Assembly (NCBI RefSeq): GCF_963921235.1
Contig: NC_086097.1
Location: 84,012,001 to 84,076,000, forward strand
Direction of reading: 5' to 3'
DNA: 64,000 bases
From: Mobula hypostoma
Taxonomy: Eukaryota
This document shows, piece by piece, positions 6,590 through 62,350 of this stretch; the first letter of the stretch is position 1, and every line of letters begins with the position of its first letter. The translations under genes and the position numbers were made by a program. Under the pieces are notes generated by a model that ran no database searches, had not been told where the DNA came from, and saw nothing but the letters and a program-made list of their open reading frames with translations.

Positions 6590-9500
6590 ACAGAACATAG
6601 AAATTTACAGCACATTACAGAGCCTTCGGCCCACAATGTTGTGCCGACCATGTAACCTACTCTAGAGACTGCCTAGAATTTCCCTAGTGCATAGCCTTCT
6701 ATTTTCCTAAGCTCCATGTACCTATCTAACATCAAGGCTCTTGAAAGTCCCGATTATATCCACTTCCACCACTGCCGCTGGCAGTGCATTCCATGCACCC
6801 ACCACTCTCTGTGTGAAAAACTTTACCCCTGACATCCCCTCAGTAACTATTTCCAAGCACTTTAAAACTATGCCCCCTCGTGTTAACCATTTCATCCTTG
6901 GGAAAAGGCCTCTGGCTGTCCACACAATCAATTCCCCTCATCACCTTATACACCTCTATCAGATCACCTCTCATCCTCTATCACTCCACGAGAAAAGGCC
7001 AAGTACATTCAACCAATTTTCATAAGATATGCCCTCCAATCTAGGAAACATTCTTGTAAATCTCCTCTGCACTCTCTGTATAGTATCCATATCTTTCCTG
7101 TAGTGAGATGACCAGAACTGAACATAGTACTCCAAGTGGGGTCTGAACAAAGTCTTATATAGTTGTAATATTACCTCACAGATCTTGAACTCAGTCCCAT
7201 GGTTGATGAATGCTAACACACCATATGCCTTCTTAACAACAATTTCAACATGCGCAGCAGCTTTGTGTGTCCTATTGTCACGGACCCCAAGATCTCTCAG
7301 ATCCTCCACACTGCCAAGAGTCTTAACATTAATGTTATATTCTGTCTTCAAATTTGACCTGCCAAAATGAACCACTCACACTTATCTAGGTTGAAGACCA
7401 TCTGCCACTTCCCAACCCGGTTTTGCATCTTACCTCTGACAACCCTCCAGACTATCCACAACACCCTCAACCTCTGTGTCATCAGCAAACTTACTAACCC
7501 ACCCTTCTACGTCTTCTTCCAGGTTATCTATAAAAATCCCAAGGGGAGGGGTCCCAGAACAGATCCCTGCGGAACACCACTGGTCTCCAATCTCCAGGCA
7601 GAATACAAGCCATCTACAACCACCTTTGCCTTCTGTGAGGAAAGCCAATTCTCGATCTATAAAGCAATGTCTCCTTTGATCCCATGCCTCCTTACTTTCT
7701 GAAGGAGCCTTGCATGGAGCATCTTATCGAATGCCTTACTGAAATCCATGTACACTACATCCACTGTTCTATCTTCATCAATGTGTTTTATTACATCCTC
7801 AAAGAATTCAACCATGCTCGTAAGGCACAACCTACCCTTGACTATCCCTAATCAGATTATGTCTCTCCAAATGCTCATAAATCCTGCCTCTCAGGATCTT
7901 ATCCAACAACTTGCCCACCATTGAAGTCAGACTCACAGGTCTATAACTTCCTGAGTTATCGCTACTCCTTTTGTTGAACAAGGGAACAACATTTGCAGTC
8001 CCCCAATCCTCCGGTACTTCTCCTGTCCCTATTGATGACACAAAGATCATTGCTAGAGGCTCAGGAATCTCCTTGCTCGCTTCCCACAGTAACCTGGGAT
8101 ATATCTCATCAGGTCCAGGTGACTTATCTAACTTAATGCTTTTCAAAAGCTCTAGCATATCGTCTTTCTTAATGTCTATATGCTCAAGCATTTCAGTCCG
8201 CTGTAAGTCATCCCCACAGTTGCCAATGTCTTTTTCCCTGGTGAATACTGAAGCAAAGTATTCATTAAGTACCTCGACTACCTACTCCAACTCCTTGCAC
8301 ACGTTTCCACTATTGCACTTAATTGGTCCTTTTCTCACACAGCTCATCCTCTTGCTTTTCACATACTTGTAGAATGCCTTGGGGTTTTGCTTAATCCTGC
8401 TCACCAAGGCCTTCTCATGACCCCTTCTGGCTCTTCTAATTACATTCTTAAGCTCCTCCCCAGCAAGCTTGCAATATTCTAGAGCTCTAACTGTACCTAG
8501 TTTCTTGAAACTTTCGTAAACTTTTCTTTTCTTCTTAACTAGATTTTCTACATAATTTGTACACCATGGATCTTTAACCCTACCATCCTTTCCCTGCCTC
8601 AATGGAACTGTCACAGTGGTGGGGCATTGGGAGGAAGGGTGGACCCAAATGCAAGACACATCTTGTGAGGTTAATTAAATTTAGTTTATTGTTCGATACC
8701 AGGAGAGCAAGGCAGGAGCAGGAGTAGCGAAATGGACAAGGACTCAGGACTATGACTAGGCTGGGCCAAGGGTCTGGGCTAGGACTTGGAATTGGATCCC
8801 AGAACTAGAGGAGACACGAAGAGGCTAGGGTATGGACTCTGAGCCAGAGACTGGGCAAGGACCCAGTACCTGGGTCTTGCCTCAGGCTCGGACCCCAGAA
8901 CCAGGCATGGACATGACATGGGCTAGGGAGAGGAGGAACATGGGAACACAGAGCCTCGGTCTCGGGAGAGCAGGTACATGTAACCATGGACACATACACA
9001 GAACACAAATTGGGGACCCCTCCTTGGGAACAGGACATAAGGCCGGGACTCATGACCCCCCCGCGGAGCAACAGCAAGACGGCCTGACTTACCCCATGGA
9101 GGCGAGGATAAGACAAGACAAGACAAGACATGACCCCCCCGCGGAGCAACAGCAAGACAGTCTGACTTACCCTACGGAGGCAAGGACAAGACAAGACAAA
9201 CACCAAAGAACAACACAGTTCCTATCTAGCTCCAGCGATAGAACTAGACCGAGGTGCAGGCGAGAGCTACAGACGAGGGCTAGGGGCGAGAGGGGCAGAG
9301 AAGGGATTCAGACAGGGGGGTAGGACAGGAATCACAGACCACCAGGGCCAAGACTTGACTAGGTACTCGGATGCCACCAGGGCCAGGACTTGACTTGGTA
9401 CTCGGATGCCGCCGGGGCCAGGACTTGGACCTGGTACTTGGATGCCGCCGGAGCCAGGACGTGGTACTTGGAACCTCCGGGTAGTGCCGAGCTCTCGACT

Positions 9501-10294
9501 CGGCCCAGGAACAGTAGACAGCGGCTCCTGATTCTCTCCAGCGGGTTAACTGACGGACCCACCTTGATGAGGAAACTTTGCAGGCTCGCTTTGGCGAGGT
9601 AACTGGACAGGGTTGCTCCAGTGAGGAAGGGCGAATTACCGGCACTCGCTTCTGCAGAGACTAGGCTCGCTCCGGCCAGATGACATCGGCACACTGTACC
9701 TTTGATGACTTTGCAGACGCTCCTGCGCCGAACAGCTGAAAGCTGGAGACTATAAACTACTGGTTCAGCCGAGCGTTAACTGCCTCTAATCACCAAAGCC
9801 AAGGGACACGGGAAAACAGGGAATCAATGGTTTGGATCGTAACATAAACAAGGTAAATTTAAAGGGACCCCGATCCGGACCATGACAGGAACATACCTAT
9901 GCAGAACTCCATGCAAATGTTCCCTGAACATTTACCACATTTCTACCATGCATATTCCTGAGAACATCTGCTCCCAAATTATGTTCCCAAGTTCCTGCCT
10001 AATATTTCCCCTACCTCAATTAAATGTTTTTCCAAATTGTCTGCCCTACCCTTCTCCAGCACTATGGTGAAGGAGATAGAGTTGTGGTCACTACCTCCAA
10101 AATGCTCTTCCACCGAGAGACACCCAACCAGGTTCATTTCTCAATACCATTTCAAGTACAGCCTCTCCTCTAGTTGGCCTATCTACATATTGTGTCAGGA
10201 AACCTTCCTGAACACACCTAACAAACTCTACCTCATCTAAACTCCTTGCGCTAAGGAAATGCCAGTCAATATTAGGAAAGTTGAAATCTCCCAT
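6590..10294 (-). mobile_element. CR1-clade LINE, 5'-truncated ORF2 (APE end + RT), split by an LTR insertion at 8609-9887
   Basis: Minus-strand ORFs carry MGDFNFPNIDW, KSPGPDEIYPRLL, YRPVSLTS, SKFADDT and RPHLEYYVQFWS, with the 3' tail at ~6590. Confidence 0.9.
8609..9887 (-). mobile_element. Solo LTR (Gypsy-type) with internal tandem repeats
   Basis: Termini TGTCA...TGACA; perfect 5-bp TSD GGAAC (8604-8608, 9888-9892); minus-strand AATAAA at ~8685-8690; duplicated ~78-bp unit (9051/9129) and ~36-bp repeats at 9340-9480. Confidence 0.85.
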
Positions 10295-28825: not shown

Positions 28826-30829
28826 TTTAAAAAACAGTTCTATGATCTTAAGTTTCAGTAGATTTACTAGCAATTTCAGCAAATGCTTACAATAAGCCCA
28901 GAAGCTAAGGGCAGAATCAAACACAAAGTTGCGTAGATTCACAATCCACATACCTATTAACCCCTGAATTTGCAAGCCAATTTTTTCTACTTAAACAATG
29001 GCAAGAATTTCATAGAATTTTGCAGCATAATAGGCCATTCTCTCCATCTAACCTGTAGAACTTTTAAAGGAACAGTCAGTTACTCTTCCATATCAGCCCT
29101 TTCCAAAACAATTTTTACCCCTTCAAACATCTATTTGATTCTTTTTTTGTGTTTGAAATGGGCTTGGCCTCCACAGCCATATGTGGCAATGGATTCCACA
29201 GATTCACTACCACCTGGCTAAAAAAAAAATGCTCATCTCTGTTCTAAATGGACATCCTTTTATTCTGAGGCAGACCCCTCTTGTAGACTCATCTACTATG
29301 GGTAAACATCCTCTTCATGTCCCCCTCATTGTTCTAAACTCCGGCGAGTATATATGAGTGTGTGAGAGTGTTAATGAGAAAAGAATGATACGATTTTCCA
29401 ACAGTCTGGAAAATATACTAATCCAACCAAAGTGCACTGGATTATTGGAACTGTACTGTATATACTTTAATTTTTACAAATAAAATGTATTTTTATAGGA
29501 AAACAGATCTACTATGTTTGGGGACTGGCATCTAAATTATGGGATCCATCTCAGAGTTTAGGCAAGCAACATCTACAGTTGTTATATTCATAGAATCATA
29601 CCTTATATATAATGTCACTAATCTGTCATAATTTTCAATCATTATTTCCGAATCACAGGCAAAACAAACCAGTAAGAGTGGCTGTATAATTACTTGTCTC
29701 AAGTTATTGAGTCAAAATCTTTCTGATTACCACCCTAGTGTCCTCCATCAGCAGATGAATCAGCATTCCTTCATATCAAACTATACTTGGAAGAAAATTT
29801 GAATATTTTAAGGACACAGAATGTACTCTGGATGGGGAACTTCAATGTGGGTTTCAGCAGAAAAGAAGCTGAGGCAAGGAAGGATATGGGAAAATCCACG
29901 GTGCAGGATCTCAATACAGGTACTTTAAAAAAGACAAATCATTGCTTACCAAATTGATTCCTTGGATAGCAACTTTTTAACTTGGCAAGATTAAGCAGAT
30001 TGGCCTATAATCTATTGACTTTCGGAGATTGAAAAGTCCTGTTATTGAAGTATACAAGCTTCTCACAAGGCTTGACGGTGGGTGAGGAAGAATTATTTCC
30101 CTTGGCTGAGATACTTAGAACTAGAGGGTCAACCATTGAGATGAGGTAAAATTTCTTCTCCCAGATTCTGTAAATCTTTGGAATTCTCCACCCATGAGGC
30201 TAAGTCCCTGAGTTTCCAAAGGAAATATTGTTTTTTTTTGCTATTTAGGAAATCAAGAGATACTGAGTCAGTACTGGAAAGTGGTACCAAGGTAAAACAT
30301 CAGCTATGAACTTACTCAATGGCAAAAAAAGGCTGAATGATCTGCTTCTATGAATCAGGACACATTCTGATTAAGTCTGAACTTTTAAGAACCAGTACAT
30401 ATGTACGAACAAAAATAAATCTGAAATTTCAGAAGCAAAAAAAAATCTGCTTGAAGAACTCAATTTGTCAAACAGCACCTGTAAATGCAAAGAAACGTGT
30501 CGGGTCGAGACCCTGCATCTGGTCTGAAGTTTCAAAGTTTTGGGGTCCTGGAAAATAGTAAGTTAGAATCAGAGACAGTGCATTTGATTACGGTTTCATT
30601 CCACTTAGGACTAAACGCTTGCCTGGAGCTTGGTAAAAACACCGAAAGGTGTTGTTGGGCGAAATAGCCACGGTAGCTTGAATTAAATAACACATACTGT
30701 GACCGGAAGGTTGAAAGCTGGACGGACCAAACTGTAATTTGCTTTAACGCATTTTATACGAGCTAGGTAGGAGGTGGGTTTGGACAGTAGGGAATGTTGG
30801 CTGCAAACTGGCTAAGTGTGTGATTACTG

Positions 30830-31380
30830 TACAAGACGGTACGGAGCTCCGCGCTGCTGGAGTAGATCCCAGAGATCACAGGTGATGAAGGTGAATCCCC
30901 GCCATCGCTCTAAACCGGGCATACTTGCCCCGGGGCCAGCAGTCGCCATGGCGACGGGGCGGGAGTGGAAAATCCGTTGTTAGGCACCCGGGAAATGACG
31001 GCACAATCGCCGAGGTGGGATTGGTCGAGGCCGGCGGGGCGGCCCCCATTTTGAGCCACGCAGGGCTGCGGGTAAGGTTGTGGTTGTCGAGTGGCTGAAC
31101 TGAAGACCAGCGCAGGTAGTGTCCCGGCGTGGGCATCGCTGCCGTCCGAGGGAGGCCCGGATCCTTTCCTTTCCCCTTAAGTGGGCCCACTCTCGGGCAG
31201 GGTTAGGGTCGTCTGGTTTTTGTTGCGTAGGAGGTCCGTCCTTCGGTGATGACCACTGGGCCGGGCGGAAGGGTCCTAGCCCCAGGCGTCGACGATCCCC
31301 CTTCTTCACCCGTCCCGACCCCAGCAGCCTCACTTTTTTTTAATGGACTTGGGGGAAGGGGTCGTCTTGTTACGTTGCCT
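30830..31380 (+). promoter_or_regulatory. CpG-island promoter of the SRSF5-like gene
   Basis: GC- and CpG-rich non-repeat stretch. It holds the palindrome GTCGCCATGGCGAC (30942-55), ATTGG (31020-24), GC box GGGGCGG (31036-42) and YY1-type CCATTTTG (31046-53); ETS-type CCGGAAG lies upstream at 30703. Confidence 0.85.
31045..31115 (+). other. SRSF5: Probable non-coding exon 1 (start approximate; donors after 31071 or 31115)
   Basis: Candidate donors G|GTAAGG (31072) and CAG|GTAGTG (31116). Exon 2 begins after an acceptor AG only 10 nt before the ATG, which implies an upstream UTR exon. Confidence 0.55.
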
Positions 31381-31971
31381 TTGCTATTAACTGGATGGGA
31401 ATTACTGTAACCTGGTTAATTTTCAGTCCTGTCCCCTCAGTAAACCCGGGCCTCCTGTTATCTGCAGCCTACAGCAGTAAAATTCTCCATCTGCTCAACT
31501 CCACGCGCTGATATCTCCCTTCTACTCCCAGTTTGCAAGCCTGTCAGTTTATCTACCAGGTTCTGTCTATAAACGTTTGCAGACCGTTGCCTTTTAAAAA
31601 AACTTTACCATCTTCTTGAATGATGAAGATTGGTACTGGTCTATTATTGTCAGATGTATCAAGATACAGTGGAAAACTCGCCTTTAATACTGTTCATACA
31701 CAGCGCATTGATGTAGAATAAGGTAAAACTATAACATGCAGAATAAAGTATAAACGTTACAAAGAAAGTGCAGTGCCGATAATAAAGTGCGAGATCATAA
31801 CGAATTAGATTGTGAGGTCAAAAGTCCATTTTATTGTTTCATCATAAGCTTTAGCTCGGTGGCTCAATCTGCGTGTTCAAGTGATGCTTTGAACTGTGTA
31901 GAAAGTATAATGGAAGTATAATTACTTGAAATGTTCCTGTTTGTGCGAAGTTGTATTCTAGGTCGGTAAAG

Positions 31972-32094
31972 ATGAATGCTCGGGTATTCATTGGCAGACT
32001 GAGCCCGTATGCCACTGAAAAAAATGTGGAGAGGTTCTTCAGAGGATATGGACGAATTAAGGAAATTGATTTGAAGAATGGATTTGGATTTGTG
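31972..32094 (+). CDS. SRSF5: SRSF5-like SR splicing factor, coding exon 1 (RRM1 N-part)
   Basis: MNARVFIGRLSPYATEKNVERFFRGYGRIKEIDLKNGFGFV; acceptor AG at 31960-61, donor GTAAGA at 32095. Confidence 0.95.
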
Positions 32095-40188: not shown

Positions 40189-40259
40189 GAGTTTGAAGAT
40201 TACAGAGATGCAGAGGATGCTGTTTATGAACTAGATGGAAAAGAGTTGTGCAATGAAAG
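40189..40259 (+). CDS. SRSF5: SRSF5-like coding exon 2 (RRM1)
   Basis: EFEDYRDAEDAVYELDGKELCNE(R); CAG acceptor, GTAATA donor; 71 nt, phase consistent. Confidence 0.96.
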
Positions 40260-40351: not shown

Positions 40352-40444
40352 AGTGACAGTTGAACATGCCAGAGCACGTAATAGAGGAGGACGAGGACGA
40401 TATCAAGGTTTTTTTAGCCAAAGCTATCAATATAGTTCTGGAAG
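40352..40444 (+). CDS. SRSF5: SRSF5-like coding exon 3 (RRM1 end, RGG linker)
   Basis: VTVEHARARNRGGRGRYQGFFSQSYQYSSG(R); CAG acceptor, GTATGC donor; follows a 92-nt intron. Confidence 0.95.
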
Positions 40445-41446: not shown

Positions 41447-42155
41447 ACAAATCCAGACACTTCATATGACAAGCTGATCAATCTACCAGAATTTAAAGAA
41501 AGTAAGCTTGTATGCTATTTACAAATGCTGAAACCTTTTATTGTCTGATGTTTATATTAAGTCCCTGTTAATTTGTCTGTTAGTTAAGTAGAGATGTTGT
41601 TTGCCATAAATAGTTGACTTAGTGTGGTGCTGAGCCTTTGGAACTGAAAGGTCATGAACTTCTGCTTTTAGCACTTTGGGCCATTATCTTGAAAACCTCA
41701 GGGATAGGAGCATAAAAATGTTTTTTTTTATTGAAATGACTTATAGAAACTCCATAATGATTGAAGACCTAAGTAACTGCTGCCTAGTTAGTAAGTATAC
41801 TGATGGCATTCAATTTACAGACCCTCAATTGGGTAAGATTATTTAAATAGACCAACCAATGTTTGGATATTGTCATCACCCGTGATCTCAGCCTTTGTAT
41901 TGTGGGAAGAGAAAGTTGGTCAATGTTCTTAAAGTAAACCTTGGACTTATAAAATCTACATTAATCTACAGAAAATAAGAACTACTTTTGAGTTATTAAT
42001 GTTCTTAAAATGATTAATGATTTTAAAGTGGAAATTGCAGAGAAGCAGAGAGTTTTGTTTTTCCCATCAACATGTCTTTCCTGACCTACCTATATCCACA
42101 AAAGACTACCTGTTGATATCTTAAAGTACAGAGGATAACATATTATCCATTTTAG

Positions 42156-42225
42156 AAGTGGACCGCCAGTTCGCACTGAAAACAGAGTTATTGTTGAGAA
42201 TCTATCTTCCAGAGTTAGCTGGCAG
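42156..42225 (+). CDS. SRSF5: SRSF5-like coding exon 4 (RRM2 start)
   Basis: [26 protein letters not shown] acceptor, GTATGT donor. Confidence 0.97.
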
Positions 42226-43688
42226 GTATGTTGCATGTAATATCTAATTATATATGACTCATGTTTTCTGTAATTATTAAACCAGTTGAAAAAGAAATGG
42301 AATGAAGCTAGCACTATTTAATTGTAAAAGCAGAGGTTTTAAGATGAGAGTCATTTTACCGTGCAGGACACAGTGTAATATTGTCTCTGCCAGATTTCTG
42401 ACAAATCGTCTCAAGTGTTACTTTCAAACAACACCTGTTGACAGTTCTAACTGAATTTAAAGCAATGTTAATAAATAATTGTTCACTGCATATATCAGAG
42501 AAATATGGTGTAGGAGAACAAAAAGTTGATCTTAACATTTGGCATTATATATGTAGCATAGTTCCTTCCAAGAAAGCTACTGACTTGCAGTTGAAGCGTC
42601 GTATGTAACCGTAATAGAATGGTACAATAAATAGCTTAAGCTGCTACCATTCCTAAACTGGATTAGCAGTTTCTGTATTTATAAAGATACCAATTTTCAT
42701 CAAATTAATATATGAACACTCTGAAAGGTCCACATTAAATATGTAACCTTTTTATTGTGAAAACGACTCTTAATTGAAAACAACCTGTCATCAACAGTTG
42801 ACTGATAAAGGTTGTAATTTTTCAAAGTGTTTCTATTTTCTATACACGGCGCTACACCCAATCCCAAAGTCTAAGTTTGAGTTGGTGCATTAACTTCATT
42901 TTTTTCGCTATGAGGTCAATTTTTTTTTAAAGCAGTGAGGCTGACTTTTAAGTTGCTTAGAGACCTGTGATGATTTTGGAATTAGTCCATTGTTGAATTC
43001 TTTTCCATCTTAAACATTTAACAAAAACAATCTTGAGGGGCCCAAAGGCTTTTTAAAGAATGTATTCTGATTTTGATCAAGATAAATGGATAGCTGATCT
43101 AGATTAATTTGGATGATGTTTGACAGTGTATGCTGCTAAACTGGAGTAGAGAAAAAAAACGAAGCCAAATGTCCTGGTTAACAATATTATTGGAAGGTGA
43201 AAGATTAAGTGGTTTGCTTTTTGAGATTTCTAGACCTCATAGCACAGTTGCTTGCTGACACTTGTGTAAACTTGCACAATGGTTAATTGGAGAATGTACT
43301 GGGAGATCCAGTACTTCTGAAGGGAAAATTTGGGTTAGGTAATTAAGTTCAGTATCATGGAGGGAAGCTGAAACTTCTAATTATTTTTGTCATGTAATTT
43401 ATTTTGTGCTATAACTAGCATTGCCACTCTGTGCATTTTTTGTTGCCCAATTGACCTCTTTGCAAGAAAGAGAAGGCATTCCATATAGAACAGATGTGAA
43501 CTGTATTTAAGAATGGATTCTCCTTTTAGTTGCTGTTCCAAATTAAGTGCTGTACCTATTATCATGATTAGTTTAAATTCTTTAAATACAAATAACTTTT
43601 GTTTGCCTACTAACCTTGAAACTAAAATGTGTTCACTCAGATTTTGATTTAAGAAATTTAACCAAGTGTTAAAACCTTTATTTACCAG

Positions 43689-44220
43689 CCTTTCGTGTCG
43701 TTGGCCTTGTGACGTGGAGTGCCGTTGGTTTTCCTAATCGCTGTGCCTTGGTCTCTTGGGCCTAGTTGAAATGCCAATCTGCTCCTACCTTTGTCAATTG
43801 CTGATCTAAATCTGTGTTGTGGTGGCCTGACCAACACTGGTGGGCACTAAGTTTAGTGCCATTACCTTGCTGCATCCCTGAAACTGATAACAGTGTGTCC
43901 TAAAGTCGCGAGTTCTGAGAGCCTGCTGTAAAATGCGAGGTCCTTGATTGGGAGAAATTCGCTGGTAGGGTTGTTTGGAAGCTCGATTGGAGTAAGGCAA
44001 GAAGTCCGTGGTCACAGCACAAGAGTAGCAATCCTGGTTCCTATGGCAATGCCACAGTCTGCCTTTAAGGGAGGGTGATGACCGGGAAGGCTTCCATCGA
44101 ATGGGTAGTGTCAGTCAAGCGGGTGGTGAAGAGAACCGTCTGGTCTTCGGTCGTGGTGGTGCCTCTGCGAACACTTGTTACATTTGGCTGGTTGAATAGC
44201 CTAGGGAATTTTACAGGAAG
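43689..44220 (+). other. SRSF5: Putative poison (premature-stop, NMD-inducing) exon / conserved block in intron 5
   Basis: Acceptor TTTATTTACCAG|CCT, then in-frame PFVSLAL* (TGA 43710-12); candidate donor AAG|GTAATA at 44221. It sits in the intron between SWQ and DLKD, where SRSF4/5/6 poison exons are known. Confidence 0.75.
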
Positions 44221-44339
44221 GTAATACATATTTTGTAATTGGATGTCTTTTTGCTTGCTTTTTCAGTGGTATACATTGGAAATAGAGACATTTTGTGTGA
44301 ATATGCTTTGATTTGTCTAACTACTTTTCTCTTGCATAG

Positions 44340-44413
44340 GATCTGAAAGATTTTATGAGGCAGGCTGGAGAAGTTACCTTTGCAGATGCACACAGGCACA
44401 AGATGAACGAAGG
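44340..44413 (+). CDS. SRSF5: SRSF5-like coding exon 5 (RRM2)
   Basis: DLKDFMRQAGEVTFADAHRHKMNE(G) completes the SWQDLKD signature; branch CTAAC, pyrimidine tract, TAG acceptor, GTGAGT donor. Confidence 0.97.
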
Positions 44414-45841
44414 GTGAGTTAACAATAGTTTGATATTGTTTTAGCTTATTGAGCTAGCTTGGCTTTTTTATAAATGCAGCAGGAGGCAAGAACTAAAAGA
44501 TTTGCTCTAATGCTGCTGTGAGAAACTGGTTTGTAATTCTATATCGACATCTACTGGTCTACATTTCACTGTAAATGGACCTAAAACTAGAGTTACAGAA
44601 TGATTTAAGTGGTTTTAAATAAATGACTGGGTTGTCATATTTTCTTATCATGCTTGTAAGAAAATCTTAACGTTTACACTGTTTACTGCTATCTTGGGCA
44701 TTCGGAATAGTCTTGCACTTTCCGCAGAACTAAAATATCAAGCATAGAGTATTAAAACATAAAGGAATTAATAGCTCAGTTAGCCTGACAATACTGGAAT
44801 CTATTATTGAAGAGAAACAAGGTACTTGGAAAATAACAATAGGATTGTGCAAGGTTATGAAAGGGAGCTCATGCTTGATAAATCTATTGAATTTTCTTTA
44901 TTGTAGCTAGCTTAAAAGTGTCAATCAGTTAATGTTGTGCATTCAAATTTAAAAAGCTTTGCAATAGATTACTGAACAAAGTGCTGGTGTTGGGAATCAA
45001 TCTTATAGTAGTGTGGATTGAGAATGTTAAAAGATAAAACAGGAATAAAATTTGTTATTTTTGAGTTAGAATTTTGTTACTAACTGGGTGACACAGGGAG
45101 TGATCCTTTGGCTGTAAGTGCACTAATATCAATGGTGTGATAAGAGTATCATATCCAACTATGAAACAAAACCAGATGGTGATGTGGGCTGTGAGCACGA
45201 TAGAGAGGGACTTCAGGGGATGGCGACAAAATAAATGGAAAATAGAATATGCATAAGCAAAATGTGAAGTCATCAACTTGGTAGAAAAAATAGTGAGACT
45301 TTTTTTAAAATCCTGAAGAATTGAAGGTTGGTGTTCAAATGGATTTGGGTGTTCAAATCACAAAGTTAATATGCAGTTTCAGCAAGTAAGTAGGAAGATA
45401 TGCAGTATTTTGGCATTTCATACGGATTTCTCTGCAAGAATAAAGACTTCCTTGCTGAAGCTGTGGTGCTACACAAAGAAGAATATATTGCAGTAGGGAG
45501 TGCAGCAAAGATTTACCAGATTGACTCGGGTGAGGAGAGTACTTGATACTGGACTAATATTTTATACAGTTTCACAACATTCTTAAATGTTTGGCAGGAT
45601 AAATGCAGCTGAGGACCCTGTCAGTTATGGTCAAAAGGAAGTCATAGTTAAGAAAAAAATGTCTGAAGCACTGGTGTGGAAGATTCTGTTGTTGGGGCAA
45701 GTAATCATAAAGAACGAGAAAATGAGAGCAGGATGGGAGATTTTATTCAAGATAACTGGGCTTGCATTCAATGTCAGCTGTATATCTGTGCCCCTAAGAT
45801 GGAGGTGCTGATGGAAAACTCAAAATAGAGAAAGGATATAA

Positions 45842-47260: not shown

Positions 47261-47371
47261 AATTGTGGAGTTTGCCTCCTATAGTGATGTGAAAAATGCT
47301 CTTGAAAAGCTCTCTGGTGCAGAGCTCAATGGAAGAAGGATCAGAGTGATTGAGGAACGTAAACAACGCAG
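47261..47371 (+). CDS. SRSF5: SRSF5-like coding exon 6 (RRM2 end)
   Basis: [36 protein letters not shown](R); T-rich TAG acceptor, GTAATC donor. Confidence 0.96.
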
Positions 47372-48481: not shown

Positions 48482-49827
48482 TACAGTATATAACAGCACA
48501 TTTGGAAAGCAGTGAAATGATCGGACAAAGTCAGCATGGATTTGTGAAAGGAAAATCATGTCTGACGAATCTCATAGAATTTTTTGAGGATGTAACTAGT
48601 AGAGTGGATAGGGGAGAACCAGTGGATGTGGTATATTTGGATTTTCAAAAGGCTTTTGACAAGGTCCCACACAGGAGATTAGTGTGCAAACTTAAAGCAC
48701 ACGGTATTGGGGGTAAGGTATTGGTGTGGGTGGAGAATTGGTTAGCAGACAGGAAGCAAAGAGTGGGAATAAACGGGACTTTTTCAGAATGGCAGGTGGT
48801 GACTAGTGGGGTACCGCAAGGCTCAGTGCTGGGACCCCAGTTGTTTACAATATATATTAATGACTTGGATGAGGGAATTAAATGCAGCATCTCCAAGTTT
48901 GCGGATGACACGAAGCTGGGTGGCAGTGTTAGCACTGAGGAGGATGCTAAGAGGATGCAGGCTGACTTGGATAGGTTGGGTGAGTGGGCAAATTCATGGC
49001 AGATGCAATTTAATGTGGACAAATGTGAAGTTATCCACTTTGGTGGCAAAAATAGGAAAACAGATTATTATCTGAATGGTGGCCGATTAGGAAAAGGGGA
49101 GGTGCAACGAGACCTGGGTGTCATTATACACCAGTCATTGAAAGTGGGCATGCAGGTACAGCAGGCGATGAAAAAGGCGGATGGTATGCTGGCATTTATA
49201 GCGAGAGGATTCGAGTACAGGAGCAGGGACGTACTACTGCAGTTGTACAAGGCCTTGGTGAGACCACACCTGGAGTGTTGTGTGCAATTTTGGTCCCCTA
49301 ATCTGAGGAAAGACATCTTTGCCATAGAGGGAGTACAAGGAAGGTTCACCAGATTGATTCCTGGGATGGCGGGACTTTCATATGAAGAAAGACTGGATGA
49401 ATTGGGCTTGTACTCGTTGGAATTTAGAAGATTGAGGGGGGATCTGATTGAAACGTATAAGATCCTAAAGGGATTGGACAGGCTAGATGCAGGAAGATTG
49501 TTCCCGATGTTGGGGAGGTCCAGAACGAGGGGTCACAGTTTGAGGATAGAGGGGAAGCCTTTTAGGACCGAGATTAGGAAAAACTTCTTCACACAGAGAG
49601 TGGTGAATCTGTGGAATTCTCTGCCACAGGAAACTGTTGAGGCCAGTTCATTGGCTATATTTAAGAGGGAGTTAGATATGGCCCTTGTGGCTACGGGGGT
49701 CAGGGGGTATGGAGGGAAGGCTGGGACGGGGTTCTGAGTTGGATGATCAGCCATGATCATAATAAATGGCGGTGCAGGCTCGAAGGGCCGAATGGCCTAC
49801 TCCTGCACCTATTTTCTATGTTTCTAT
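48482..49827 (+). mobile_element. Young 5'-truncated CR1 LINE with an uninterrupted RT reading frame (intron 7)
   Basis: ORF 48412-49737: QHGFVKGKSCLTNL, YLDFQKAFDKVPH, GVPQGSVLGP, SKFADDTKL, ending in a TTTCTATG tail. Confidence 0.95.
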
Positions 49828-50239: not shown

Positions 50240-53200
50240 AATGCTGAAAGGGAAGAACAAGATCAGAGCCATCAACACATTAGTCCTACCAGTCATCAGA
50301 TACCCAGCTGCAATATTATGTTGGCCAAGGAATGTACTGGAAGCTGCTGAGAACTACTAACAATACATAGAAGATTCCATCCAATGTCAAGCAGCTGTAC
50401 ACCTGCCAGAATAAAGGAAGAGGGGGACTTAGGAATGTCAGGGCCATAGTCCTGGAAGAAATATGAAACATCCCTGAGTATGTCAGGAAGATGGCCCCTA
50501 AGGACAACCTGCTAGGTGAACACCTCAGACAGCAGCACGGGGCATGGAAATGGAAGTGGGTGAAGCAGAGCCAGATGACCAGAGGCCATGTCAGGACAAG
50601 CCACTGTATGGGATGTACAATTGCCAGATATCGGAGGCGGCTGACACAAGAAAGTCTTACCAATGGCTGGAAATGCTCAGAACAGGAGCTGAGCACAAGA
50701 GCAATAGAAGCAGAGCTCTATCACACCAGACAAGTCGTAAGATGCAGACTGGTCAAAGAATCCGCTGAAACCTTCCAGCACATAGTAACAGGGCGCAAGA
50801 TGCAGGCAGGGACAGCATACACTGAATGACACAACCAAGTTGCAGGAATTGTGTACGGAAACCTCTGTGCTGAGTATGGATTGGACACTCCAAAGTCCAA
50901 ATGGGAAAAACCCGAGAAGGTAGTAAAGAATGACAGAGCTAAGATCCTGTGGGACTTCCAAATACAGACTGATAAGCAGGTACTGGGCAACCAACCAGAA
51001 ATAGTAATACAGGACAAGGAACAGAAGAAAACAATAGTATAGATGTGGCGATCCCACATTTATTCATGGGATAGTCATGGCGGATTTCAGCATGCAGGTC
51101 GATTGGGGAAAATCAGGTTGGAAATGGATCCCAAGAGAATAAGTTTGTTGAATGTTGACGAGATGGCTTTTTAGAGCAGTTTGTCGTTGAGCCTACTAGG
51201 GGATCAGCTATACTGCATTGGGTGCTATGTAATGAACCGGAGGTGATTAAGGAGCTTAAGGTAAAAGGATCCTTAGGAGGCAGTGATCACAGTATGATTG
51301 AGTTCAACTTGAAATTTGGTACGGAGAAAGTAAACTCTTTATGTAGCAGTCTTTCAGTAGAGTAAAGGAAATTACAGTGGTATGAGAGAGGAGTTGGCCA
51401 AAGTAAATTGGAAAGAGATGCTGGCAGGGATGACAGCAGAGCAGCCGTGCGAGTTTCTTGGAAAAATGAGGAAGGTGTAGGATAGATGTATTCCAAAAAC
51501 AATGAAATACTCAAATGGCAAAATAGTACAACCATGGCTGACAAGGGAACTCAAATCTAATGTAAAAGCAAAAGAGAGGGCATATAACAAAGCAAAGATT
51601 AGTGGGAAGATAGAGGATTGGGAAACAATCATTAGGAGGGAAAAGATGAAATATGAAAGCAAGCTAGCAAACAATATTAAAGTGGCTAATTAAAGCTTTT
51701 TCAATATGTAAAAAAATAAAAAATGAGAGTGGATATAGGACAGCTAGAAAATGAGACTGGAGAAAAAATAACAGGACAAGGAGATGGCAGGTAAACTTAA
51801 TGAGTATTTTTGCATCAGTCTTCACTGTGGAGGCCACTAGCAGTGTGCAGATGTTGAAGGGTGTGAGGGAAGAGAAGTGAGTGCAGTTACTATTACAAGG
51901 GAGAAGGTGCTCAAAAAGCTGAAAAACCTAAGGGTACCTAATGGCCAGATGAACTGCACCATAGGGTTCTGAAAGAGTTAGCGTTAGACATTGTGGAGGC
52001 ATGAGCAATGATCTTTCAAAAATCGTACTCTGGCATGGTGCTAGAAGACTGGAAAATTGCAAATGTCACTTCTGTCTTTAAGAAGGCAGCAGAGAGGAAA
52101 TTATAGACCAGTTAGCCTGACCTCACTGGTTGGGAAGATGTTGGAGTCGATTGTTAAGGATGAGGTTCTGAGTACTTGGTGACACAGGACCAGGTAGGAC
52201 AAAATCAGCGTGGTTTCCTTAAGGGAAAATCTTGCCTGACAAACCTGTTAGAATTCTTTGAGGAGATTACAAGTAGCACTGATAAAGAGGATGCAGTGGA
52301 TGTTGTATATTTGGACTTTAAGAAGGCTTTTGATAAGGTGCCACGCATGAGGCTGCTTACCCAGTTAAGAGCCCATGGTATTACAGGAAAGTTACTAACA
52401 TGGTTAGAGCATTGACTGATTGGTAGGAGGCAATGAGTGGGAATAAAAGGATCCTTTTCTGGTTAGCTGCCGGTGACTAGTGGTGTTCCGCAGGGGTTGG
52501 TGTTGGGACCACTTTTTTTTATGTTGTATATCAATGATTTAGATGATGGAATAGATGGCTTTGTTGCCAGATTTGCAGATGATACGAAGATTGGTGGAGG
52601 GGCAGGTAGTGTTGAAGAAACAGGCTGCAGAAGGACTCAGACATATTAAGAGAATGGGCAGAGAGTGAAAAATGAAATAACAGTGTTGGAAAATGCATGG
52701 TAATGCACTTTGGTAGTAGAAATAAATATGCAGATTATTTCTAAATGGGGAGAAAATCCAAAAACTGTGATGCAAAGGGACTTGGGAGTCCTTGTGCAGA
52801 ACAACCTAAAGGTTAACGTGCAGATAGAGTTGGTGGTGAGGAAGGCACTTGCAATGTTAGCATTCATTTCAAGAGGTATAGGATACAAGAGCAGTGATGT
52901 ACTGCTGAGGATTTATAAGACACTGGTAAGGCCTCCTCGAGTATTGTGAACAGTTTTGGGCTCCTCATCTGAGAAAAGATGTGCTGACATTGGAGAAAGT
53001 TCAAAGGAGGTTCACAAGATGATTCTGGGAATGAAAGGGTTATCTTACGAGGAACATTTGATAGCTCTGGGTCTGTACTTGCTGGAATTTAGGAGGATGA
53101 GGGGGTTCTCATTTGAAACCTTTTGAATGTTGAAAGACCTGGACAGTAGATGTGGAAAGGATATTTTCCATGGTGGGGGAGTCAAGGACAAGAGGGTACA

Positions 53201-53760
53201 GTCTCAGGATAGAGGGGCATGAATTTGTGAAATTTATTACCACAGGCTGCTGTGGAGACCAGGTCATTGGGGGTATTTAAGGCAGAGCTTGACAGGTTCT
53301 TGATTAGCTACAGCATCAAAGGTTATGGGGAGAAGGCTGAGCAGTGAGGCTGAAGAGGGGGATAAAGGATCAGCCATGATTAAATGGCAGAGCAGACTCG
53401 ATGGGCCAAATGGCCTAATTCTGCTCCTGTGTCTTATGATCTAATCCTGAATGACAGTAACATCAGGAAGAAAGAATATGAGAAACTGGAGAAATACCAG
53501 GGCTTGTAATAGCAGACAGAAAGGATGTGGAAGGTTAAAGCCAGAGTGATCCCACAGTTGATACGAGTACTTGAAACTGTGACACATGGACTGGGAGAGT
53601 GGCTCCAACAAATCCCAGGAACAACATCTGAGATCCAGGTCCAGAAGAATGCACTACTAAGAGCAGCAAGGATACTGCACCCAAACCCTCAAGCTCCCGG
53701 GCCTCTGATGGAAGACCGGAGATTGAGGGAAAAATACACATGCACGCCTCCCTTAAAGGG
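50240..53760 (+). mobile_element. R4/Dong(Rex6)-like non-LTR element with restriction-like endonuclease, split by a CR1 at ~51060-53443
   Basis: GKNKIRAINTLVLPVIRYP; CRLVKESAETFQHIVTG; HNQVAGIVY; KILWDFQIQTDKQVLGNQPEIV...DVAIP. It resumes at ~53445 with NDSNIRKKEYEKLEKYQGL...WLQQIPGTTSEIQVQKNALL. Confidence 0.75.
51060..53443 (+). mobile_element. Degenerate CR1 LINE nested in the R4-like element
   Basis: GFLKGKSCLTNLLEFFE, YLDFKKAFDKVP, FADDTK and RDLGVLV motifs, plus a 3' tail. Confidence 0.88.
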
Positions 53761-56658: not shown

Positions 56659-56902
56659 GTCTCGTAGTAGGTCTCGTTCTCGTAGTCGAAGTTCTTCCAG
56701 ATCTCACTCCAGGGGCCGCAAGTCCTATAGTCGTTCCAGGAGCAGGAGCCGGAGCAGGAGTAGGAGCCGCAGCCGCAGCAGGTCCCATTCTGATAGTAGA
56801 TCACCTGCTCCTGCTAAGGAGCAGGGAGGTCATTTGTCAATGACCTCTGGAGACCATGAAAGGTCACGTACACGATCACCTTCTGTTGAGAGTACAGATT
56901 AA
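56659..56902 (+). CDS. SRSF5: SRSF5-like terminal coding exon (RS domain)
   Basis: SRSRSRSRSRSSSRSHSRGRKSYSRSRSRS...RSRTRSPSVESTD*; TTTTTTTCAG acceptor; TAA at 56900-02. The joined CDS is 786 nt with no internal stop. Confidence 0.95.
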
Positions 56903-60232: not shown

Positions 60233-62350
60233 TTGAACGCACTGCCCTCCACTCTCTCCGCAGTAATCCCAACCTCACCATCAAACCTGCTGACAAAGGT
60301 GGTGCCGTAGTAGTCTGGCGGACGGACCTCTACCTCACTGAGGCCAAACGGCAGCTCTCTGACACTTCCTCTTACTTACCCCTGGAACAGGACCCCATCA
60401 AAAAATATCAAACCATTGTCTCCCGCACCATCACCGCCTTTATCAACTCTGGAGACCTTACATCCTTAGCCGCTAAACTCATTATTCCCACACCCCATAC
60501 CGCTCGGTTTTACCTCCTCCAAAAGATACACAAGCCTGACTGTCCCGGTAGACCCATAGTTTCTGCCTTCTCCTGTCTCACCGAACTTGTATCTGCCTAC
60601 CTGGACTCCATTTTGTCACCCATAGTTCAGTCCCTCTCCACCTACATCCGAGATACATCCCATGCCCTCCACCTCTTCCATAACTTCCAATTCCCCGATC
60701 CCAACCACTTCATTTTTACTGTGGATGTCCAATCCTTATACACCTCCGCTACTTCCTGGATAATAGACCTCACCAGTTCCCCATCACCACTACCCTCCTC
60801 CGGTTGGCGGAACTGGTTCTCACACTTAATGACTTCTCCTTTGGCTCTTCCCACTTTCTTCAGACTAAGGGTGTAGCTATGGGAACTCGCATGGGACCCA
60901 GCTACGCCTGCCTCTTCATTGGCTATGTGGAACAGTCTGTGCTCGAAACCTATTCTGGTACTGCTCCCCAACTTTTCCTTCGGTACATTGACGACTACAT
61001 TGGTGCTGCTTCCTGCACCCATGCTGAGCTCATCAATTTCATCGACTTTACTTCAAACTTCCACCCAGCCCTCACATTCACTTGGTCTATCTCAGATACT
61101 TCTCTCCCCTTTCTCGATGTCTCGGTCTCCATCTCTGGAGACAGACTGTCCACTGACATCTTCTACAAGCCCACTGACTCTCATAACTACCTCGAATATA
61201 CCTCTTCCCACCCCACCACATGCAAAAATGCCATTCCCTATTCCCAGTTCCTCTGTCTCCGCCGCATCTGCTCCGAGGATGAGGCTTTCCATTCCAGGAC
61301 ATCTCAAATGTCCTCTTTCTTTAAGGATAGTGGTTTCCCTTCTACTGTCATCAATGATGCCCTCACCCTGATCTCCTCCATTTCTCACACTTCGGCCCTC
61401 ACCCCATCCTCCTGCAACCACAACAGGGACAGAGTTCCCCTTGTCCTTACCTACCACCCTATTAGCCTCCGGATCCAGCACATTATCCTCCGCAACTTCC
61501 GCAACCTTCAACAGGACCCAATCACTAGGCATATCTTTCCCTCTCCAACCCTCTCCGCTTTCCGCAGGGATCGGTCCCTCCGCGTCTCCCTTATCCACAC
61601 GTCCCTCCCCACGGATCTTCCACCCGGCCCTTATCCCTGTAAGCATAAGTGCTACACCTGTCCCTACACCTCATCTCTTGCCACCATTCAGGGCCCCAAA
61701 CAGTTCTCCCAGGTGAGACAACACTTCACTTGTGAGTCTGTTGGGGTCATCTATTGCATCCGGTGCTCCCGGTGTGGCCTCCTCTACATCAGTGAAACCC
61801 AATGCAGATTGGGGGATAGCTTCGTCGAGCACCTCCACTCCGTCTGCCAGAATAGACAGGATCTCCCGGTAGCCACCCACTTCAACTCTGCTTCCCACTC
61901 TCATTCAGATATGTCCATACACGGCCTCCTCTACTGCCATGATGGGGCTAAACTCAGGTTGGAGGAGCAACACCTCATATACCGTCTAGGTAGTCTCCAG
62001 CCCCTTGGTATGAACATAGAATTCTCCAACTTCTGGTAACTCTCTCCTCCTCTCTTCCTCTATCCCTATTTCACTCTGCCCCCTCCCCCAGCTGCCTATC
62101 TCCTCCCTCATGGTTCCGCCTCCTTCTTCTACTACCCATTGTTTTCCTGCCTATGACATCCCTGCTTCCCCTCCCCCACCCCTTTGTCTTTCAAATTACT
62201 GGTCTTTCAACTGAACCTACAAGCATTCTTCAAATCCTTCCCCCTCCTTCTTTGTTCAGTCCTGACGAAGGGTTCTGGCCTGAAATGTCGACTCATCGTT
62301 TCCACTGATGCTGCCCGACCTGCTGAGTTCCTCCAGCGTGTTGTGAGTGT
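60233..62350 (+). mobile_element. Penelope-like element (Neptune-type): RT + GIY-YIG endonuclease, one frameshifting deletion
   Basis: IKPADKGGAVVV, PGRPIVS, DVQSLYTS, GVAMGTRMGPSYA, RYIDD, Cys linker CKHKCYTC and VIYCIRCSRCGLLYISET; near-perfect 12-bp flanking repeat TA(A/C)AGGAGCCTT (60221-32, 62351-62). Confidence 0.93.
62258..62293 (+). ncRNA. Minimal type I hammerhead ribozyme motif in the Penelope terminal repeat
   Basis: AGTC (stem I) - CTGACGA core - AGGG TTCTGG CCT (stem II) - GAAA - T GTC (cleavage triplet) - GACT (stem I'). Confidence 0.7.

Follow-up and report, generated by a model that had tools for sequence, protein, structure and literature searches.

We find that the intron following the ..SWQ exon of an SRSF5 gene in Mobula hypostoma contains a cassette exon of 532 nt, at 43689-44220 on the forward strand of the window (the whole 64,000-nt stretch of DNA analysed here, to which all positions without a contig name refer), and that this exon is both included and skipped in contigs whose RNA nature is inferred from their GT..AG joints. 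We consider it highly probable (about 0.9) that it is the ancestral poison cassette exon of SRSF5 and that its inclusion likely sends the message to nonsense-mediated decay (NMD). The initial annotation had described here a GC-rich block that starts after a CAG, stops at codon 8 and ends at AAG/GTAATA, between the SWQ and DLKD exons of SRSF5; all of these elements are present, and the assignment of the host as an SRSF5 gene with a spliced poison cassette is borne out by the cassette and skip joints. The host gene (31972-56902, forward strand), called copy W below, is the third of three tandem copies, and the two upstream copies are called A and B.

The upstream constitutive exon (42156-42225, forward strand) ends in ..SWQ with a phase 0 donor, CAG/GTATGT, and contig joints depart from 42225; the downstream constitutive exon (44340-44413, forward strand) begins with DLKD.., and loose ends of contigs at 44413 run on into the letters of the exon at 47261. 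The cassette between them has 50% GC and 18 CpG, and the flanking intron has 33% GC upstream (1463 nt) and 30% GC downstream (119 nt). The acceptor AG ends at 43688 and is followed by CCT TTC GTG TCG TTG GCC TTG TGA; upstream exon and cassette together read ..SWQ PFVSLAL before the in-frame TGA at codon 8 (43710-43712). This premature stop is separated from the cassette donor by 508 nt, and three exon junctions follow it. The distance to the nearest of them exceeds 50 nt and two more come later, an arrangement consistent with the exon-junction rule for NMD, and the codon-8 stop suggests that the message is likely sent to this pathway. Plain intron retention reads ..SWQ VCCM and then also meets a stop. 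The first stops in the other two cassette frames are a TAA at 43735 and a TAG at 43763, but a trap of stops in all three frames (the earliest at codons 8, 16 and 25) arises about one time in three by chance on a rough reckoning, and we do not count it as evidence.

The 3' splice site of the cassette forms a module (43657-43688) with a branch-point-like TTTAAC at -31, a pyrimidine tract and a CAG, conserved in copies W, B and A and in a bird-like ortholog described below. TTAAC stands at -31 from the 43689 acceptor in all four and is the sole branch-point-like motif common to them, and branching likely takes place at this TTTAAC. The donor GTAATA (44221-44226) is used in the joint 44220>44340, and AAG/GTAA is shared by the same four sequences. 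A second strongly conserved module (44089-44224) contains a purine-rich GGTGAAGAG-type motif and TAGCCTAGGGAA before the donor. No AATAAA or ATTAAA occurs inside the cassette, and there is no sign of the early polyadenylation known from frog and zebrafish ESTs.

Contigs of 8 of 22 runs, none of the 22 registered as RNA, were placed on 42100-44500, and the joints counted here are those listed for them; such contigs drop rare forms and cannot give levels, and their depths are not read as expression. Both cassette junctions that the initial annotation had suggested looking for are found, the acceptor joint 42225>43689 in one of the eight runs (X5) and the donor joint 44220>44340 in four (X5, X19, X14 and X16, the last, with a likeness of 80, perhaps from a paralog). 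The skip joint 42225>44340 is listed in five runs (X1, X5, X19, X14 and X16). In addition, record 9 of X14 holds the whole cassette (11 differences over 533 nt), preceded by 27 additional letters and followed by the downstream joint, which is consistent with both joints. The joint from exon 5 to the cassette also appears in loose ends of contigs for copy B (X5, X14 and X16) and for copy A (X16), indicating that all three copies include the cassette. RefSeq isoforms of rays and sharks (P0004, P0005, P0241, P0242, P0244, P0246 and P0247) end in SWQ followed by PLVSLAL, PLVMSLAL or PLVMSWAL, the peptides with which the cassettes of copies A and B begin; no isoform among the 93 non-DLKD tails of 274 proteins ends in the cassette tail of copy W itself.

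Copy W has seven coding exons (31972-32094, 40189-40259, 40352-40444, 42156-42225, 44340-44413, 47261-47371 and about 56659-56902), and its product has two RRMs and an RS tail. SRSF5 and SRSF5-like proteins are its best database relatives, and it has the SRSF5 exon structure, with an intron directly after ..SWQ. A CpG island at 30751-31400 is likely the promoter and non-coding first exon of copy W. Because this island suggests a non-coding first exon, the cassette-bearing intron is counted as intron 5, the intron in which the excerpted text of PMC10796970 places the mouse poison exon. A genome search returns three places that match the cassette block, all on contig C1 and all in SRSF5 intron 5. 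Besides copy W, the matches lie upstream of the window, at distances of about 35 and 20 kb, and each falls in a complete SRSF5-like gene (C1:83,973,885-83,978,500, loci L003, L006 and L017; C1:83,988,164-83,995,700, loci L002, L005, L018 and L019), where the cassettes are 499 and 517 nt long. The tandem copies are less than 100 kb apart, and A, B and W each have their own CpG island.

The tandem copies form a group with mouse SRSF5 and fish srsf5b, with supports of 86/94 in a 56-row tree and 74/96 in a 24-row tree, neither value being starred, and an AU test does not reject a grouping of the copies with SRSF5A (p 0.204). About 50 kb downstream, on the opposite strand, is a gene for a bile acid transporter resembling SLC10A1 (NTCP) (C1:84,117,076-84,119,455, L032, minus strand; E 2e-38 to its best PDB match), and about 375 kb downstream there is a SPARC calcium-binding domain, a candidate SMOC1. 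The host locus thus sits in an SRSF5-SLC10A1-SMOC1 neighbourhood, with SMOC1 as the candidate member, and excerpts of PMC10751923 give SRSF5, SLC10A1, SMOC1 as the human gene order. The best reading of trees, neighbourhood and cassette homology is that the tandem copies are co-orthologous to SRSF5. An assignment of the host to the SRSF5A/srsf5a type, suggested by the motif LKNGFGFV, was dropped on these three grounds, although the AU test alone does not reject it. Copy W pairs with the whale shark protein P0002 (support 100/99 in the two trees), and B-type isoforms are found for sharks and rays alike, which indicates that at least W and B are older than the shark-ray split.

The genome also has a fourth SRSF5-type gene, the unlinked paralog D (C50:5,587,929-5,597,184; L007, L022 and L023), and two SRSF4/6-type genes on C80 and C2. 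In paralog D only the acceptor and about 40 nt retain detectable similarity to the cassette (E 7e-6), and D-type RefSeq isoforms end in LVVRSLAF. In the trees built here the D clade consists of cartilaginous fishes only, and the intron 5 of D has a GC-rich block of its own of about 450 nt. A SPARC-domain gene about 215 kb downstream of D suggests that D is a whole-genome-duplication paralog.

The initial annotation had expected the block to be more conserved than the flanking intron, and the comparisons agree. A scan of metagenome contigs returned one locus with the cassette motif (L033), a sauropsid, bird-like SRSF5 whose cassette reads PICVVGLMTRSACGLS, as does the pigeon isoform P0126. This cassette is 533 nt long, has the same acceptor and donor as that of copy W, and is identical to it in 362 of 501 aligned columns (72%; z 27 against 40 mononucleotide shuffles), whereas the two flanking intron parts align no better than shuffles (z 0.6 and -0.8). 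The local matches cover 172 nt at 77% (E 1.5e-30) and 136 nt at 72% (E 3.5e-13), the latter being the second module. The cassette thus shares homology and borders with the tetrapod SRSF5 alternative exon. Global alignments of the cassette give z values of 27 to 47 in all three comparisons, and the six flank comparisons give -0.8 to 4.8, with some flanks somewhat above shuffles (upstream W-A z 3.4, downstream W-B z 4.8). Among the tandem copies, the cassettes are identical at 425 of 502 positions for W-B (85%) and 392 of 487 for W-A (80%), a level equal to that of the coding exons in the comparison (372/441 and 360/441, with the length-variable exon 4 left out) and far above four-fold sites (24/47 for W-B and 26/42 for W-A, 51-62%). 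In an alignment of the three ray copies and the bird, 258 of 722 columns are invariant. The cassette is therefore conserved above both flanking intron and synonymous sites, without a frame constraint. Orthologous contigs show the same contrast in record 13 of X16 (98 differences in 786 nt upstream vs 20 in 646 nt in or just before the block, p 3e-11) and in X19 (26 in 1436 nt upstream vs 0-2 in 532 nt in the block, p 0.0005-0.017), while the deficit of block differences is not significant in the other two of these four comparisons (X5, p 0.053; X14, p 0.11).

The likeness of the tandem copies could in principle come from gene conversion or from a repeat insertion, as they lie within 100 kb of one another. 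We give this explanation practically no credence: it is already refuted by the bird ortholog, which is 72% identical in the cassette with flanks at shuffle level, and it sits badly with four-fold sites that are near saturation between the copies, with a block that matches the genome at SRSF5 intron 5 only, and with the lack of any Rfam match to the block. A second alternative holds that the cassette is kept because it yields a short protein with RRM1 alone and a conserved peptide at its C terminus. Its attraction is that rays, sharks and two frogs stop in frame after 7-8 residues (..SLAL; from the 93 non-DLKD tails of 274 proteins), the frog tails (PICVSLAL; P0131 and P0133) and that of the unlinked ray paralog (LVVRSLAF; P0256) all ending within 8-9 codons, and that the insertion which sets copy B apart from W is 3 nt long and in frame. 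However, amniotes and the coelacanth read the same bases in another frame (a 16-residue tail), teleost srsf5b uses yet another (24 or more residues), the SLAL-stop of the bird cassette lies in frame +1, and the VVGLVT of copy W lies in frame +2. About 500 nt past the stop are also conserved, and most cassette indels are not a multiple of 3 (10 of 12, 13 of 18 and 23 of 28 in the three pairwise comparisons), which makes the peptide explanation very unlikely.

The bird stop in another frame and the 23 of 28 frame-breaking indels instead support selection on the RNA sequence rather than the peptide, as had been proposed, and the bird cassette, 72% identical but stopping in a different frame, agrees with the likeness to the mammalian exon at nucleotide level that the initial annotation had pointed out. 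A conserved RNA structure was looked for and not found: the fold of the cassette is not beyond that of shuffles (z +1.79), the covariation term for the four sequences is +1.5 kcal/mol and Rfam gives no matches at E up to 1. Without a conserved fold or an Rfam family, the constraint would most simply fall on linear binding motifs.

The initial annotation further proposed two stop-coupled acceptors, and the strings that it named upstream of the cassette are present. A perfect branch-point consensus, TACTAAC, lies at 43608-43614 on the forward strand, followed by a candidate acceptor AG at 43639-43640 and by ATT TTG ATT TAA, with the stop at codon 4 (43650-43652; forward strand), and use of this AG would yield ..SWQ ILI and then a stop. 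It is possible to read copy W as having two working stop-coupled acceptors, TACTAAC serving 43641 and TTTAAC serving 43689. The AG at 43639-43640 is the first after TACTAAC, a motif expected about 0.009 times per 100 nt of host intron (roughly 1%) and found five times on the forward strand of the window, and neither X5 nor X19 has a listed difference from the window at 43608-43641. Several observations make this reading improbable. Of the four sequences W, B, A and bird, only W has the TACTAAC (at -81 from the 43689 acceptor) and the AG (at -48): copy A and the bird lack them, and copy B has only TGTTAAC at the aligned place, with other AGs. The pyrimidine tract is weak at 43641 (8 of the last 14 bases vs 10 of 14 for the 43689 acceptor), two more AGs (43653 and 43666) stand between the two proposed acceptors, and in AT-rich sequence any intronic AG can be expected to meet a stop within a short distance. 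The suggested junction 42225>43641 is not among the joints listed in the 8 runs, whose contigs drop rare forms. TACTAAC and this AG could constitute a minor acceptor, and excerpts of PMC5959240 report that SR poison introns hold many branch points. A candidate internal donor, GGA/GTAAGG (43992-43997, forward strand), was also named and is present, with a GT at this column or one beside it in B, A and bird. By a crude U1 match it ranks below the terminal donor, it is not top-ranked in any of the four cassettes, and no joint from 43991 is listed in the 8 runs; a working donor at this place is not upheld.

In the mechanism proposed here, skipping (42225>44340) gives the full two-RRM/RS protein. 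Inclusion runs from the AG at 43688, with the TTTAAC at -31 as its likely branch point, to the donor at 44221 and brings in a stop eight codons into the cassette and thereby probable decay. SR proteins (the SRSF5 copies and, by analogy with mouse, SRSF3 or SRSF4) would likely bind the conserved motifs and raise inclusion, and this would act as negative feedback on the SRSF5 level. Unspliced intron-5 RNA would likely form a detained pool that resolves either way. In human cells the SRSF5 event triggers NMD; it is shared throughout animals, and fungi retain an intron at the corresponding place (PMC4379411). For mouse Srsf5, excerpts of PMC4281565 describe an NMD isoform that is stabilised by Upf1 knockdown, promotion of inclusion by Srsf4 and higher poison exon inclusion upon Clk inhibition, and those of PMC3439968 describe binding of the region by SRSF3, which raises poison use. 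Inclusion of the exon in zebrafish srsf5a (the 5a paralog) rises in upf1 mutants, according to the excerpted part of PMC7354994. In the excerpts of PMC3594168, total SRSF5 mRNA shows no NMD effect in proliferating erythroleukaemia cells, which suggests that the switch need not act in every cell type.

A further alternative, compatible with the poison cassette as the best explanation, is that the main regulatory product is a nuclear transcript with intron 5 detained, the block slowing splicing and the cassette with NMD being a minor exit. Single contigs span all of intron 5 in X1 (record 3, 42197-44367), X9 (record 19) and X12 (record 3), with no copy-W cassette joint among those listed in these three runs. 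Detained introns lie on both sides of the mouse Srsf5 poison exon; they are not NMD substrates and gain no stability upon Upf1 knockdown (excerpts of PMC4281565). Human ESTs count 87 and 68 for retention vs 20 and 5 for inclusion (PMC4379411 Table S1). On the other side, X5 carries both cassette joints, and ray and bird share precisely the same acceptor and donor. Contigs give no levels, and intron 4 (over 42100-42155) is covered in several runs at depths like those of intron 5 and may be retained or detained too, so the intron-5-spanning contigs may be detained RNA, ordinary pre-mRNA or DNA; the bin 44449-44500 in intron 6 has no cover in any of the 8 runs. We regard detention as the main product as a tentative proposal, one that should not be dismissed, and unspliced intron-5 RNA may arise as often as the cassette form. 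The initial annotation would have taken the lack of NMD-sensitive spliced or retained reads as a refutation; this holds for the exon-included form but is too simple for retained reads, since intron-retaining mouse Srsf5 is not NMD-sensitive in the excerpts of PMC4281565.

The poison cassette described here corresponds to the SRSF5 (SRp40) intron-5 cassette of Lareau and Brenner (2015; PMC4379411), with the same gene family, the same intron after ..SWQ, a premature stop, homologous sequence and borders (533 nt in bird, 532 nt in ray) and likewise adjacent intron retention. It differs in the position of the stop, which is a TGA at codon 8 in the ray, at codon 17 in the bird and after a 16-residue tail in the human-type isoform P0125, and in its setting within a tandem SRSF5 triplet; Table S1 of that study has no cartilaginous fish. 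The proposal that the circuit predates the split of cartilaginous and bony fish is correct but understated, as PMC4379411 traces it through animals to fungi. Mouse Srsf5 (Boutz et al., 2015; PMC4281565) has, in excerpts, cassette forms and forms with an unspliced flanking intron, as in the ray; detention, Clk control and Srsf4 dependence are known from the mouse, whereas the ray is known from sequence and contigs. The RefSeq "SRSF5-like" isoforms of Mobula birostris (P0005), Rhinoraja longicauda (P0004) and Stegostoma tigrinum (P0242) use the homologous acceptor in copies A or B, and P0005 is identical to the product of copy A with the cassette included. An alternative exon also occupies this intron in the SRSF5A paralogs (chicken SRSF5a, frog krt5.1 and zebrafish srsf5a; PMC4379411 Table S1), which share LKNGFGFV with copy W but form a separate clade in both trees and have different tails in their shortened isoforms.

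The cassette is kept in second copies of chicken, frog and zebrafish, and its retention in paralogs is as such not new (PMC4379411 Table S1); the present case adds a cartilaginous-fish example of a long-known mechanism. An elasmobranch tandem triplet with the cassette in every copy was not found in the literature searched, which included few subscription papers. We suggest, as a speculation, that sharks and rays have kept one poison-exon code in the triplet (plus the unlinked paralog) since before their split, as a pooled, cross-regulating dosage circuit acting through the same SR proteins, and that copy W may have its own second branch point and acceptor (TACTAAC, 43641), decoupling it from its sisters. 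The value of the locus is comparative: three long-diverged copies and a bird ortholog cut an exon of about 530 nt down to a few invariant motifs, which offer themselves for a dissection of the cis-elements, a task that PMC4379411 described in 2015 as still to be done, and the tandem triplet offers a way to ask whether duplicated SR genes share or split feedback.

Some further features of the region were noted. Upstream of the triplet, the decayed first two coding exons of a fourth SRSF5-like gene lie at C1:83,929,228-83,929,513 (L012), with no cassette remnant nearby (best E 0.065); this fragment is possibly a lost srsf5a-type copy, and no intact srsf5a-type gene was found in the genome. Between copies B and W there is a second CpG-rich patch (9351-9750), near which no SRSF5 exon was found. 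The coding span is about 25 kb in copy W vs 4.6 and 7.6 kb in A and B, and the introns of copy W are full of repeat-like inserts. Three stretches (48500-49780, 51100-53400 and 60240-61950) look by eye like decayed retrotransposons, perhaps of LINE or Penelope type. The RS tail of copy W is shorter and ends in a distinct acidic stretch, and the function of this copy may have diverged.
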